From Escherichia phage AnYang, in sequence record MK234886: DNA of 64,000 bases. One strand, 5' to 3'. Positions 4,393-43,028 of the stretch are shown piece after piece; positions within the stretch are counted from its first letter, which is position 1; each line of letters begins with the position of its first letter. The position numbers and the translations under genes were made by a program. Under the pieces are notes generated by a model. That model saw only the letters and a list, made by a program, of their open reading frames with translations. It ran no database searches and was not told where the DNA came from.

Positions 4393-4437
4393 AATATCCT
4401 CGCTTAATTAAACCTATTTTATCATCCATTCAGAAAG

Positions 4438-4462
4438 CAAAAAAGGAGCCTAAGCTCCTTTA
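4438..4462 (-). terminator. hairpin plus U-tract on minus strand
   Basis: AAAGGAGC-TTAG-GCTCCTTT stem followed by T-run on minus strand. Confidence 0.35.
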
Positions 4463-4623
4463 CCAACTAATACACCATACAGAGGTTCACGATTAGACGT
4501 GAACTTGATTTTCTTATAGGTAATAGTACCTTCATTTTCTGCTTTAATACGAGCGGCTTCAAATTGAAGAATCATCTCGTTTTTGTCAGATTTAATCTTA
4601 TCAAAATCCGTCGAATTCGTCAT
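4450..4623 (-). CDS. hypothetical small protein (57 aa, below ORF-track cutoff)
   Basis: ATG with AAGAGG SD; stop lies inside the hairpin; hand-translated. Confidence 0.3.
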   Translation of the reverse strand: MTNSTDFDKIKSDKNEMILQFEAARIKAENEGTITYKKIKFTSNREPLYGVLVGKGA

Positions 4624-7379: not shown

Positions 7380-7511
7380 TTAAATTTTCCAGTTTCCGTG
7401 TTTATCAATGAATTTAATCCAGTCATTTACTGACCACGTGGTTGTATCGCCTTTTGGAGCCACATTTAAAGTATATAACCCTTGCTTAAAAAGCATTCGT
7501 TTGATATTCAT
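7380..7511 (-). CDS. hypothetical small protein (43 aa from internal ATG)
   Basis: GAGGAAA SD before ATG at 7511; the longer ORF would overlap the upstream gene. Confidence 0.3.
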   Translation of the reverse strand: MNIKRMLFKQGLYTLNVAPKGDTTTWSVNDWIKFIDKHGNWKI

Positions 7512-7814: not shown

Positions 7815-8069
7815 TTACCTCAGCAGTTTGTATCCAATAAGATTTTTAATGTATTGGACATCTTTGACATCCAAATCCAACTTAATATCTTTCAGGCGTT
7901 CGGCCAGAGTAAGAAATGTTACGCGTTTCCAATTCTTAACAGGACAGCAATAAGTTTTCGGGCCATTAGCGATTTCAATATTCTTATCAGTGATGGTGAT
8001 AAAAATCAAACGTTCATCATCAAGATTAAGGGTGACTACATTTTTCATTGAATGTAATTTCAGGCTCAT
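7815..8069 (-). CDS. hypothetical protein
   Basis: 84 aa ORF, ATGA-coupled. Confidence 0.5.
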   Translation of the reverse strand: MSLKLHSMKNVVTLNLDDERLIFITITDKNIEIANGPKTYCCPVKNWKRVTFLTLAERLKDIKLDLDVKDVQYIKNLIGYKLLR

Positions 8070-8242
8070 AATTTGATTTCCTTAGCTATCGAACAAAATA
8101 CAGCACGGTCACAAATCATTTTAATATTAAGCTCAATTACGGTATACCACACATCCAGGCTAGATATTTCAGTTACTAGAACAGCTTTGCCGTTGATTGA
8201 ATAATACTGGTTGACTTTAATTTCTTTATCTTGGATAGTCAT
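8066..8242 (-). CDS. hypothetical small protein (58 aa, below ORF-track cutoff)
   Basis: GAGGAGAA SD, ATGA overlap with downstream gene, early promoter upstream; hand-translated. Confidence 0.45.
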   Translation of the reverse strand: MTIQDKEIKVNQYYSINGKAVLVTEISSLDVWYTVIELNIKMICDRAVFCSIAKEIKL

Positions 8243-8272
8243 AATGTTCTCCTCATGTGTTGATAGGATAGA

Positions 8273-8300
8273 CTATAACACGTGAGGAGAGGAAGTAAAC
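8273..8300 (-). promoter_or_regulatory. T4-type early promoter
   Basis: minus strand GTTTAC ... TTATAG upstream of the 58 aa ORF. Confidence 0.4.
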
Positions 8301-8301
8301 A

Positions 8302-8619
8302 CTAATCTTCAATTAAATCTTGGTCATAGCCAAGTTCAATCAAAAGTGATTTGAAGGCAGGAATATTTTCTATTTTCTTATTATCGACAAAGATGACAGG
8401 ATAGCGTATCGCTAAGCTCTTGAAGCCTGCACGTTTGGCCAATGATACTATAAGAGGCTTGTCATATACTGCGCCTGACGGCGTCTGGTTAATCACAGGA
8501 TAGAAAGTATGTGGGATAGAAAGGGAATTTAGGAGCGATAGAACTGCAATGCACCCTGGACAGCGCATGACTGTCTCAGGGATACCGTAAATCTCAATTT
8601 TAGTTAACTTTTGGTCCAC
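8302..8619 (-). CDS. glutaredoxin/thioredoxin-like redoxin (CPGC motif)
   Basis: 105 aa; IEIYG...CPGC active-site-like motif; GTG start with AAGGAG SD. Confidence 0.5.
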   Translation of the reverse strand: MDQKLTKIEIYGIPETVMRCPGCIAVLSLLNSLSIPHTFYPVINQTPSGAVYDKPLIVSLAKRAGFKSLAIRYPVIFVDNKKIENIPAFKSLLIELGYDQDLIED

Positions 8620-8896
8620 AGGAAATAACTCCTTGGTAGTCCCAGGTTTTTAGAACTTCGTCCTCAGTAGTTCCATACGGGACGTAAATCTGAATAAGAA
8701 AACCAGTGTCATCGAAAGAGAAATAAACAGTCGGTTTAATACCATGAATCTCTGACAGGGCATAGATGTCCTTGAGGTCTTCTTCCTTACCGACAAAGAA
8801 TTCCGGGTTCAGGTCACAGTCATGGAAGTACCAATCATCACCGAATTTGTCCCATGCGGTCCAATTGGTAGCTACATATTCTTCAAAACGTTTCAT
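8600..8896 (-). CDS. hypothetical protein
   Basis: 98 aa ORF. Confidence 0.5.
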   Translation of the reverse strand: MKRFEEYVATNWTAWDKFGDDWYFHDCDLNPEFFVGKEEDLKDIYALSEIHGIKPTVYFSFDDTGFLIQIYVPYGTTEDEVLKTWDYQGVISCGPKVN

Positions 8897-9108
8897 TCTT
8901 TCACCTTCATCATTTTGGAAATAACACCATGAACAGACTGGATTCGTTTTTCGAACTCAGACCCTTCAAGACCTTTTTCAGTACTCAGGGCACCAATAAT
9001 CACAAACAGCAATCCAAATGGGATGACCAGGATTAAAAGGCACACGATAAACAGGGCAAATGTAATATTGGCCAGGATATCGGAAACAGCATTACGAAAT
9101 TTGTTCAT
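8893..9108 (-). CDS. small membrane protein
   Basis: hydrophobic core; start at internal ATG coupled (TAATG) to the upstream micro-ORF. Confidence 0.45.
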   Translation of the reverse strand: MNKFRNAVSDILANITFALFIVCLLILVIPFGLLFVIIGALSTEKGLEGSEFEKRIQSVHGVISKMMKVKE

Positions 9109-9233
9109 TAAAGAACCCACATGTTAGTTACAACAAATAACCATTGAGCAGGATACTCAACACCCATAATACGCACCGCATCGTTCAGAGATTCGGCTAA
9201 AGCATAAAATGTGTAGCCATAAAAATTAATCAT
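9108..9233 (-). CDS. micro-ORF (41 aa) translationally coupled between gene 49 and the downstream gene
   Basis: ATGA overlap with gp49 stop and TAATG overlap with next start; hand-translated. Confidence 0.3.
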   Translation of the reverse strand: MINFYGYTFYALAESLNDAVRIMGVEYPAQWLFVVTNMWVL

Positions 9234-9703: not shown

Positions 9704-9738
9704 AATAAACCCTTACCATTATTAGATAAGGGTATTTA

Positions 9739-9924
9739 TTATTTTTCAAATGTACTATAGAACGAACGATGCAACCGTTTAAATTGACGAATCATCTTTT
9801 TGGTAGGGCGAGTATACAATCCTACACAGGTGGCCATAAACTGGTCGGTAGGACTTCCTTTGATAAGAAGTTTCCAGACCTTACTGCCATCCAACTTTTC
9901 GGTATAAACCAGTACAGTTTTCAT
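9739..9924 (-). CDS. hypothetical protein
   Basis: 61 aa ORF. Confidence 0.4.
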   Translation of the reverse strand: MKTVLVYTEKLDGSKVWKLLIKGSPTDQFMATCVGLYTRPTKKMIRQFKRLHRSFYSTFEK

Positions 9925-19396: not shown

Positions 19397-19606
19397 TCAC
19401 CGGTTGTGTTTTAAAATACTATAAAGCTCTTCAACTTGGCTTGCATCCAGATAAATGACCTCGTCATCTTGTTCCAGAACAATACCACCTTTAACAAGGT
19501 TCCATTCTACCACTTCAACAGTCATATCATCACCAGAACCGGCTAATGTCTCAGGTTCTAGAACAATAATACCATCTTCAGAATTACCACTCGGGTCATA
19601 TAACAT
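19397..19606 (-). CDS. hypothetical acidic protein (start uncertain)
   Basis: ORF-track start is TTG at 19681; ATG at 19606 has GAGGAAA SD. Confidence 0.4.
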   Translation of the reverse strand: MLYDPSGNSEDGIIVLEPETLAGSGDDMTVEVVEWNLVKGGIVLEQDDEVIYLDASQVEELYSILKHNR

Positions 19607-19701
19607 TACAGTTTCCTCGCTAACCATGAAAAGAATAAACCAATTAAAACTGGCCCTACAGCCATTGTTAGCCAAGCCCAAGGTTCAAGATAGTAAATCA
19701 T
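19606..19701 (-). CDS. possible 31 aa hydrophobic micro-protein
   Basis: AGGAG SD; TAATG coupling to downstream gene; hand-translated. Confidence 0.25.
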   Translation of the reverse strand: MIYYLEPWAWLTMAVGPVLIGLFFSWLARKL

Positions 19702-41684: not shown

Positions 41685-42438
41685 TTTTATTTCCTAATAA
41701 TTTATCAATAGTAGTGTATAGTTCAGAAAGAGTGCCGTTATTTTCAACAACAACGTCACCAGGTAAAATTGGTAGACCCGCTTCAGTGATGTGCGAGTCT
41801 TGTACTTGACCGGTTTCAGAGCGAACTACATGAATAATCGTAGCACCCATCGCTCTGAGCGAATCAATTTCGTGTGTTTGACGAACATCAGGTACGACAT
41901 AGTATTTCGCATCAGAGTATATTTTATCAAAATAGTCTAAAGCGAACAACTTAACCCAATACATCTTATCAAATTGGTTAACAATAATATCAGTCCCAAG
42001 GGTCTGCATGAGACGACGTACTGACCAATTGTTATTTTTATTTATTACTTCAAACAGTTGGTCTTTTGTTTCTTCAGACAGATACTGGACTGGGGTAAGA
42101 CCATAATGATATGCGGTACGAACGTCCATTCCTGGAATAGGAAGGATATTATTCAGTTTGACAATAGCATTTTCAAAGATATCAACCACATCATATGGTT
42201 TTAAAGGAAGGATTTCTTCACGGTCGTAACCGATACCTTCAAAACAGTTGAAATCCAGTTTAGGCATATAACTACGGTCGAATACAGGGTCATCAGAGAT
42301 GTATTCATAGGCTTCAGCCAGATACTTTTTAATAGGACCTGCGAGCTGAAATTTTACCGAATCCATATTTTCGATTACATAGTTAGCAACGGTATCCTTA
42401 CCGCTACGTTTGATTCCTACAATTGATATTAGTTTCAT
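41677..42438 (-). CDS. 1: dNMP kinase gp1
   Basis: 253 aa; P-loop GIKRSGKDT; synteny. Confidence 0.85.
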
Positions 42439-43028
42439 TATTTTCTCATAGATGGATGCATAGACATACGAGCCACACGTTGTTCGGCATACGAATCAAT
42501 TTGTGGACGACCTGTAACTATTGTACCATCTATTTCTACAGCAAACGATTTGAAGTTGAATGTTGCTGTAGCGATTATCGCAGGGTCAGAATCTTCTTTA
42601 TACGAATACTGGATTTCCGAGAGGTCGGATGGCCAACCACCGTAGTAATGAATGCTCATTACTATTTTCTGTTTGTTATTATCAAGGATATGGAGGGTAA
42701 TTGCTTCAGGTAAGCCTTTAGGATGCCAAGCTTCGGATTCGTGGGTTACATAGTTGTTTAATGACAACATCCACTTATAAACGTCAAGCCATGATTTCAA
42801 TTCACGGTCCACAAGAAAGTTCACAATCAATGGGTCGAATTCTACTGTAGAACCTGGCAGCTTAGCACGATGTATGCCCTGGGTCGATCCTGGGACGTCT
42901 GAGATCGGAATATGGATACCAGGTAGTGTTACATCTTGTACGTTCAATTTGAATGACTGTGTCATTCCTGAGTCACTAACCTCTAAGATAAAGTTGGTGG
43001 TGTTAGTTTGGTTAAATAAACCGTTCAT
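42438..43028 (-). CDS. 3: tail completion / sheath stabiliser gp3
   Basis: 196 aa; position between genes 1 and 2. Confidence 0.7.
   Translation of the reverse strand: MNGLFNQTNTTNFILEVSDSGMTQSFKLNVQDVTLPGIHIPISDVPGSTQGIHRAKLPGSTVEFDPLIVNFLVDRELKSWLDVYKWMLSLNNYVTHESEAWHPKGLPEAITLHILDNNKQKIVMSIHYYGGWPSDLSEIQYSYKEDSDPAIIATATFNFKSFAVEIDGTIVTGRPQIDSYAEQRVARMSMHPSMRK

Follow-up and report, generated by a model that had tools for sequence, protein, structure and literature searches.

Do open reading frames (ORFs) that fall below the length cutoff of an automatic ORF track correspond to genes? The question is raised by Escherichia phage AnYang (sequence record MK234886), of which we analyzed a stretch of 64,000 nucleotides (nt), referred to here as the window. 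By hand translation, the initial annotation had placed four micro-ORFs of 58, 57, 41 and 31 amino acids (aa) in this stretch, and all four were found exactly at the positions given, on the minus strand (Table 1), which carries the genes of the region. The closest match of the region is Escherichia phage C6 (96.4% identity), a member of the T4-like coliphages of the genus Dhakavirus (JS98 group). Our data indicate that the four micro-ORFs are very probably genuine protein-coding accessory genes and belong to the early, pre-replicative clusters of genes in a T4-like Dhakavirus. They are already catalogued, since two are named T4 genes (55.6 and a-gt.2) and all four are found in PHROGs and in several GenBank records. 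What the analysis adds is modest: the 41-aa ORF is orthologous to a T-even micro-gene that is paired with 55.8 and had been overlooked, and the T4 reference sequence contains a one-base discrepancy.

To rank the Shine-Dalgarno (SD) sites, their strength was expressed as the energy of the duplex with the anti-SD sequence and compared to all 1325 ATGs of the minus strand. The strongest site precedes the 58-aa ORF (GAGGAG, -9.4 kcal/mol, best 0.7%), whose stop overlaps the start of the next gene as ATGA. The 41-aa ORF has the site GAGGAAA (-6.1 kcal/mol, best 6.6%) at a rather long spacer of 11 nt; it overlaps the TGA of gene 49 at its start (ATGA), and at its end its TAA is merged with the ATG of 55.8 (TAATG). 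For the 31-aa ORF we observed GGAG (-6.6 kcal/mol) and a TAATG overlap with the downstream DUF7189 gene. The proposed combination of SD sites with ATGA or TAATG overlaps was thus borne out for these three ORFs, whereas the 57-aa ORF possesses an SD site (AAGAGG, -6.5 kcal/mol) and no overlap with either neighbor. Each micro-ORF would accordingly be translated from its own SD site, and three of the four may also be coupled to a neighbor through these overlaps.

Conservation in related phages had been named beforehand as a check, and the ORFs were found to stay open in relatives, with purifying selection on the protein. Using tblastn against GenBank phages, we retrieved matches in 728 phage records for the 58-aa ORF, 795 for the 57-aa ORF, 64 for the 41-aa ORF, and 104 for the 31-aa ORF. 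The most variable codon position was the third. The ratio of nonsynonymous to synonymous substitution rates (dN/dS) ranged from 0.16 to 0.53 (0.18 to 0.47 for 55.6, 0.24 to 0.53 for a-gt.2, and 0.16 to 0.45 for the 41-aa ORF) as compared to 0.04 to 0.25 for the flanking genes. In a simulation, the observed number of substitutions was placed at random and scored for an open frame together with no more amino acid changes than observed. Of 13 comparisons, 11 gave P values from 0 to 0.004; the remaining two, each of a nearly identical a-gt.2 pair, gave 0.013 and 0.06. This comparative evidence, namely conservation, an in-frame indel, and the substitution pattern, therefore identifies the micro-ORFs as protein-coding genes on which constraint is real, although relatively weak.

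Table 1. Micro-genes, adjoining genes, and regulatory elements in the window
Feature	Position	Strand	Evidence
41-aa gene, phrog_3350 member	9108..9233	-	phrog_3350, E 1.2e-22
58-aa gene, T4 gene 55.6 homologue	8066..8242	-	phrog_2283, E 3.1e-33, residues 1-58 of 58
57-aa gene, T4 a-gt.2 homologue	4450..4623	-	Pfam DUF5486 (PF17588), phrog_2140
31-aa single-pass membrane peptide gene (predicted)	19606..19701	-	phrog_12165, E 3e-25; = VR7ORF105c
71-aa T4 gp55.8 membrane-protein homologue	8893..9108	-	phrog_1930, E 6.5e-30
43-aa micro-gene, T4 55.4 homologue	7380..7511	-	coordinates correspond to JS98 55.4, C6 ORF72
Early-type sigma-70 promoter before 55.6 (candidate)	8272..8300	-	consensus scan: GTTTAC, 17 nt, TATAGT, upstream TG
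Intrinsic-terminator hairpin and T run (predicted)	4442..4461	-	scan; spans a-gt.2 stop codon

The 41-aa ORF lies between gene 49 and a membrane protein, as had been described, and the latter is the 55.8 homologue. By tblastn, its matches were confined to Dhakavirus, Gaprivervirus and a single Mosigvirus; HMMER, run exhaustively over 1.84 billion representatives, added just one cluster, and blastn to the T4 locus gave no match. The Gaprivervirus PSD2001 retains nrdD and nrdG and has a 37-aa ORF between nrdG and 55.8. A 37-codon ORF at this nrdG-55.8 position is present in 703 phage records, including T2, T6, RB5, and resequenced T4. The profile phrog_3350 recognizes the T4-type ORF (E 5.5e-26), the JS98-type ORF (E 8e-24), and the window ORF, and hhalign gave a probability of 89.5% (E 2e-6). 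The T4-type and JS98-type forms, each of 37 residues, share 12 identities without gaps, as read from the printed sequences. On the basis of these sequence comparisons, the 41-aa ORF and the 37-codon ORF that T-even phages carry between nrdG and 55.8 are orthologues. The T-even ORF (PhAPEC2_73; "hypothetical protein" in RB5, T2, and T6) and the window ORF match the same PHROG profile, of which VR7ORF080c is the Dhakavirus/Gaprivervirus form, and both are located directly upstream of 55.8. In both, the start overlaps the upstream stop and the pattern ND...G.E[YF]..Q...V..N.W is conserved. They differ in that the window form has four to five extra N-terminal residues and about 30% identity to the T4 type, and in that the upstream neighbor is nrdG in T-even phages and gene 49 in the window. 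The ORF adjoins gene 49 because the nrdD-(mobC)-nrdG segment is absent at this locus.

Did the 41-aa ORF arise de novo at the scar of an nrdD-nrdG deletion? Such an origin had been considered because in T4 it is the nrdD ATG that overlaps the TGA of gene 49, at exactly the place taken by the ATG of the 41-aa ORF in the window. It was rejected in view of the orthologous ORF in PSD2001.

The T4 micro-gene has a particular history of annotation. The T4 reference (NC_000866.4) reads TTTT at a T run located between 55.8 (start at 42328; locus extract 5829) and nrdG (end at 42446; locus extract 5947), whereas T4 "wild" (KJ477684, extract 401-511), PSD2001, and PhAPEC2 read TTTTT. With one T fewer, the micro-ORF of the reference is cut to 27 codons and a 117-nt unannotated gap results. 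This one-base difference may reflect either an error of sequencing or a polymorphism between strains. The micro-gene thus accompanies 55.8 in roughly 740 T-even-type genomes, yet a single-base difference has kept it out of the T4 reference annotation; in KJ477684 it is intact yet likewise unannotated, so that it is missing from both T4 records examined. The Dhakavirus form is unannotated in JS98, IME08, and CUA3. The view that such micro-proteins are routinely missed is therefore justified in part: it applies to the 41-aa and 31-aa ORFs in some relatives, whereas PHROGs has a family for each of the four, several GenBank relatives carry annotations of them, and 55.6 and a-gt.2 bear T4 gene names.

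Of the 11 relatives examined at the DNA level, 10 keep the 41-aa ORF open. JS98 and Bp7 share a 15-nt in-frame deletion; their stop is found one codon further on, so that the overlap with 55.8 survives as ATGA in place of TAATG. The indel that separates the 41/42-aa from the 37-aa forms (window 9195-9225, minus strand) is flanked by the imperfect direct repeat TTTTATGGCT ... TTTTATGCT, which suggests that it arose by slippage or repeat-mediated deletion. The AlphaFold2 (AF2) model of the product consists of a helix at residues 4-22, a loop at the conserved MG.EYP, and a helix at residues 29-40, with a predicted local distance difference test (pLDDT) score of 68. The hydropathy of 0.91 is too low for a membrane span. 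The ORF persists where a segE-like gene replaces gene 49 upstream (PSD9 and Bp7) and beside the divergent 55.8 of G53, and this persistence with changed neighbors argues for a function of its own.

Two explanations would deprive these ORFs of a functional product. According to one, they are chance open frames in intergenic spacers that are not translated. ORFs of 25 to 60 codons are indeed common in the six frames of this AT-rich DNA: 7.5 kb contain 85 that reach 25 codons or more, so that length by itself does not set an ORF apart from chance. However, conservation in 64 to 795 genomes with a coding substitution pattern, the in-frame indel, the strong SD sites, the matches to family profiles, and the proteins detected in T4 for the orthologues of two ORFs leave this explanation with a negligible probability, and it is effectively refuted already. 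The other concerns the 41-aa ORF, which might be a mere translational bridge, an upstream ORF feeding the weak 55.8 start: ribosomes finishing gene 49, or nrdG in T4-type phages, would re-initiate on the micro-ORF, and the peptide would have no function. The SD site of the 55.8 start is weak (-3.1 kcal/mol, about the median for any ATG), the micro-ORF start overlaps the upstream stop in every lineage, and at the other end its stop either overlaps the 55.8 start, as in the window and the 10 Dhakavirus-, Gaprivervirus- and G53-type relatives examined, or lies 8 to 12 nt before it, as in T4-type, Mosigvirus, and PSD2001 sequences. Its dN/dS is also above that of the neighboring genes. Selection nevertheless acts on the amino acid sequence, and a pure bridge is therefore disfavored, to the point that we consider it quite unlikely. 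Amino acid changes are significantly fewer than under random substitution (P 0.0000-0.0016), synonymous changes are observed under the invariant residues N3, F4, Y5, E14, R21, M23, G24, E26, Y27, P28, W31, and F33, the T4-type and JS98-type forms have retained about a third of their residues and one common profile, and the micro-ORF is about as conserved as gp55.8 (39-42%). As for the 41-aa region, an RNA element in place of a gene was rejected as well (folding z of -0.36, no Rfam match).

If the 41-aa ORF is a gene, does it form a unit with 55.8? The true start of 55.8 is the ATG at 9108 and not the GTG at 9120 of the ORF list. Its homologues were found in 737 phage records as compared to about 740 for the two micro-ORF types combined, with a matching host and genus breakdown, so the micro-ORF and 55.8 represent a conserved gene pair. 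The 41-aa product may fold as a two-helix hairpin and be synthesized along with the membrane protein gp55.8, both would probably act together at the inner membrane, and translation of the micro-ORF could also deliver ribosomes to the weak 55.8 start. A broader reading, which we put forward tentatively as a possibility, is that the phrog_3350 micro-protein and gp55.8 constitute a two-gene membrane module of T-even phages that has gone unstudied owing to the truncation in T4, and that the Dhakavirus micro-ORF, once nrdD-nrdG had been lost, was joined in register with the gene 49 terminus. Exclusion, the modulation of a membrane protein of the host, and counter-defense are examples of what such a module might serve. 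In G53, the 41-aa ORF travels with gene 49 and not with its own 55.8 type, and this weakens the idea of a partnership.

The 58-aa ORF is the homologue of T4 gene 55.6. T4 gp55.6 has 57% amino acid identity to the window product (tblastn), all database relatives carry Pfam PF26806, and the ORF is annotated as gp55.6 in JS98. It is located downstream of nrdH and behind a predicted promoter. The initial annotation had assigned it an early promoter of its own, and a candidate early-type promoter was indeed identified about 30 nt before the ORF. Across the region, promoter-like matches are not above chance (17 found versus 17.7 expected); in an alignment, the distance of the hexamers from the ATG is kept in T4, Mosigvirus G53, and the Dhakaviruses. 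We infer from this sequence pattern that the element probably acts as the early promoter of 55.6. In a multi-omics study (PMC9697503 supplements), T4 55.6 yielded early RNA and an early protein; being classed as an early protein, gp55.6 was therefore detected by mass spectrometry, as was the a-gt.2 protein. The proteomic check proposed for the micro-ORFs has thus been done in part, namely for these two T4 products.

The AF2 model of the 55.6 product is a five-stranded SH3/Tudor-like beta-barrel (pLDDT 88). In the comparison of the window with C6, the flanking genes are 99-100% identical, whereas 55.6 has only 62% amino acid identity, and the nucleotide identity is 50% at 8119-8172, inside 55.6. 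The window carries the JS98 allele (short loop, 58 aa), whereas C6, VR5, and VR7 carry a 60-aa allele, and the two classes are spread mosaically among Dhakaviruses. The variable stretch coincides with the predicted beta3-beta4 loop and contains a two-residue indel. Modular shuffling has been described for the hyperplastic regions of T4-type genomes (PMC2839356), and the local allele exchange at 55.6 appears to fit this process. We propose that gp55.6 would be an early cytoplasmic protein in the form of a free-standing SH3/Tudor-like barrel that binds a host macromolecule, with the hypervariable beta3-beta4 loop as its likely specificity element. With its predicted barrel, hypervariable loop, and swapped alleles, it is a reasonable candidate for a binder of a host target.

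The 57-aa ORF corresponds to T4 a-gt.2 and is annotated as such in JS98, VR5, and VR7. Its PF17588 score of 69.4 bits exceeds the gathering cutoff of 27 (E 2.3e-19). In T4, a-gt.2 gives rise to early RNA and a late protein (PMC9697503 supplements). The stop codon is located in the loop of a terminator hairpin that VR5 and VR7 keep with changes on both arms, and T4 has an equivalent hairpin after the a-gt.2 stop. Conservation of the hairpin therefore marks a-gt.2 as the last gene of its transcription unit, and the product would be a small soluble protein encoded just before the terminator. The spacing between a-gt.2 and gene 47 in the window is 57 nt (4393-4449) and contains this terminator; gene 47.1, which encodes a small membrane protein and is annotated in JS98 and T4, is absent from this interval.

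The match of the 31-aa ORF to phrog_12165 covers profile positions 1-31, in agreement with the 31-aa form. An alternative start that would give 37 aa was rejected, as it lacks an SD site (-1.5 kcal/mol) and is not conserved. The 104 records with this peptide belong to Dhakavirus, Gaprivervirus, and Mosigvirus; it is annotated as VR7ORF105c, PhAPEC2_94, and P8 ORF105, and is unannotated in JS98, WG01, and C6. It consists of a single hydrophobic span, WLTMAVGPVLIGLFFSWLA, with a best 19-residue hydropathy of 1.76, an acidic N-terminal flank, and a C-terminal RK. The peptide would insert into the inner membrane as a single helix and, because of the positive-inside rule applied to its flanks, with the N-terminus out and the C-terminus in. 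The ORF is intact in 13 of 14 relatives and is kept behind two different upstream neighbors. In vB_EcoM_005 (locus extract 601-660), a deletion leaves only its first 19 codons and also takes away the start of the DUF7189 gene; that phage can therefore dispense with both genes.

The loss of the 31-aa ORF in this relative, together with the allele swapping at 55.6, suggests that all four are dispensable host-interaction genes. Could one or more of them be anti-defense proteins? They are small, early, non-essential-looking, and fast-evolving, and the swapped 55.6 alleles with a hypervariable loop in phages that are otherwise 99-100% identical form a pattern compatible with an arms race. However, no similarity to a characterized anti-defense protein was found, as Pfam, NCBIfam, PHROGs, and PDB gave no functional match, and we regard an anti-defense role as unlikely. 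PDB sequence searches and NCBIfam produced no matches for the micro-proteins at all, a literature search for 55.6, a-gt.2, and the nrdG-55.8 ORF did not reveal a functional study, and scans of IMG/VR with the neighboring genes returned only the same isolate genomes. For gp55.6, a more specific role as a take-over factor that binds RNA polymerase can be envisaged, in which the modeled barrel would dock on the beta-subunit lobe like the Tudor-like domains of UvrD/PcrA and CarD. The C-terminal domain of UvrD/PcrA and the RNA polymerase interaction domain of CarD/Mfd have a Tudor/SH3-like five-stranded barrel in common with the predicted gp55.6 structure, but their identity to gp55.6 is only 7-10%, and no sequence match of gp55.6 to any PDB chain was found; for these reasons, we did not file it as a Tudor-like RNA polymerase-binding member. 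Polymerase binding is thus a lead from the predicted fold only, and a very unlikely one in our estimate.

Several observations weigh against the conclusion that the four ORFs are genes with the roles proposed. Their dN/dS is several-fold above that of the flanking genes, so constraint is weak, and support from expression is limited to the T4 orthologues of 55.6 and a-gt.2. Overlapping signals may account for part of the conservation at the ORF ends: the first codons of the 41-aa ORF are within a translation-initiation region, and the SD site of the downstream gene is inside the last codons of the 31-aa ORF, which explains part of its C-terminal conservation. The structure model of the 41-aa product is of moderate confidence only, and the SH3/Tudor fold is too common to identify a target of gp55.6. 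Taken together, we consider it highly probable that the four are genes, and the result matters mainly as quality control. A length cutoff in an ORF track conceals real genes, these are correctly recovered when the translation is done by hand with the help of SD sites and stop-start overlaps, and the four are further members of the large pool of uncharacterized T4-like accessory micro-proteins.

The gene order in the region is nrdC ... 49, 41-aa ORF, 55.8, an RB69-ORF082c-like gene, nrdH, promoter, 55.6, a DUF7290 gene, 55.5, 55.4 ... 55 ... a-gt.3, a-gt.2, terminator, 47. A fifth micro-gene, the 43-aa 55.4 homologue, is shorter than a 60-aa cutoff and had not been listed in the initial annotation, and the ORF list gives a 74-aa frame from an upstream ATG at this position; T4 gp55.4 is an early protein that has been detected (PMC9697503 supplements). 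Just upstream of gene 49, we observed a 9-bp stem-loop whose tail is rich in T, together with the promoter-like sequence TTTAAA-18-TATAGT (9709-9733 and 9754-9783, minus strand), which resemble the promoter/stem-loop cassettes described for T4-type hyperplastic regions. The segE-like gene found at this locus in place of gene 49 (endonuclease VII) encodes a GIY-YIG homing endonuclease of 357 aa (PF19835, 5e-34; phrog_7363, 1e-179). The stretches concerned are positions 411-1484 (PSD9), 414-1351 (Bp7), and 411-1686 (PSD2001) of the locus extracts. Gene 49 is wholly replaced in PSD9 and Bp7, and in PSD2001 its last 40 codons are left, beside a stop-containing 5' fragment of the 41-aa ORF. In the ESCO10 record (OM386655), product names look shifted or misassigned, with the 41-aa ORF labeled as single-stranded DNA-binding protein, 55.6 as RNaseH, and 55.8 as DNA helicase loader; similar mislabels were seen in the record of Yersinia phage P8.

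How do these genes compare with known systems? For the 31-aa peptide, no homologue was detected in T4, and its relatives are the phrog_12165 members VR7ORF105c and PhAPEC2_94, which have 31 aa, are 74-100% identical, and share the TAATG overlap with the downstream DUF7189 gene. The upstream neighbor is mobD.3 in the window, whereas it is a TraR-like zinc-finger ORF in VR7, JS98, and P8. Small membrane or adaptor micro-proteins are exemplified by E. coli AcrZ and MgrB and by T4 Stp, with which the micro-proteins have in common the size class and a single-helix or small-domain architecture, an analogy only, without a sequence relationship or a demonstrated functional one. A further comparison is that with T4 itself, in which nrdD, mobC, and nrdG, absent at the locus in the window, lie between 49 and 55.8. 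T4 gp55.6 (UniProt P07078) has 60 aa as compared to 58 in the window, and in both phages the gene is downstream of nrdH, has a GTTTAC...TATnnT promoter, and ends with a stop that overlaps the next gene; the window contains an additional gene (DUF7290, RB69 ORF079c-like) between 55.6 and 55.5. Similarly, T4 a-gt.2 (UniProt P13328) is 56% identical to the window product over 54 residues and, as in the window, follows a-gt.3 and has a terminator hairpin at its 3' end. In T4, however, mobB, a-gt, and 47.1 separate a-gt.2 from gene 47, whereas in the window gene 47 is directly next to it.

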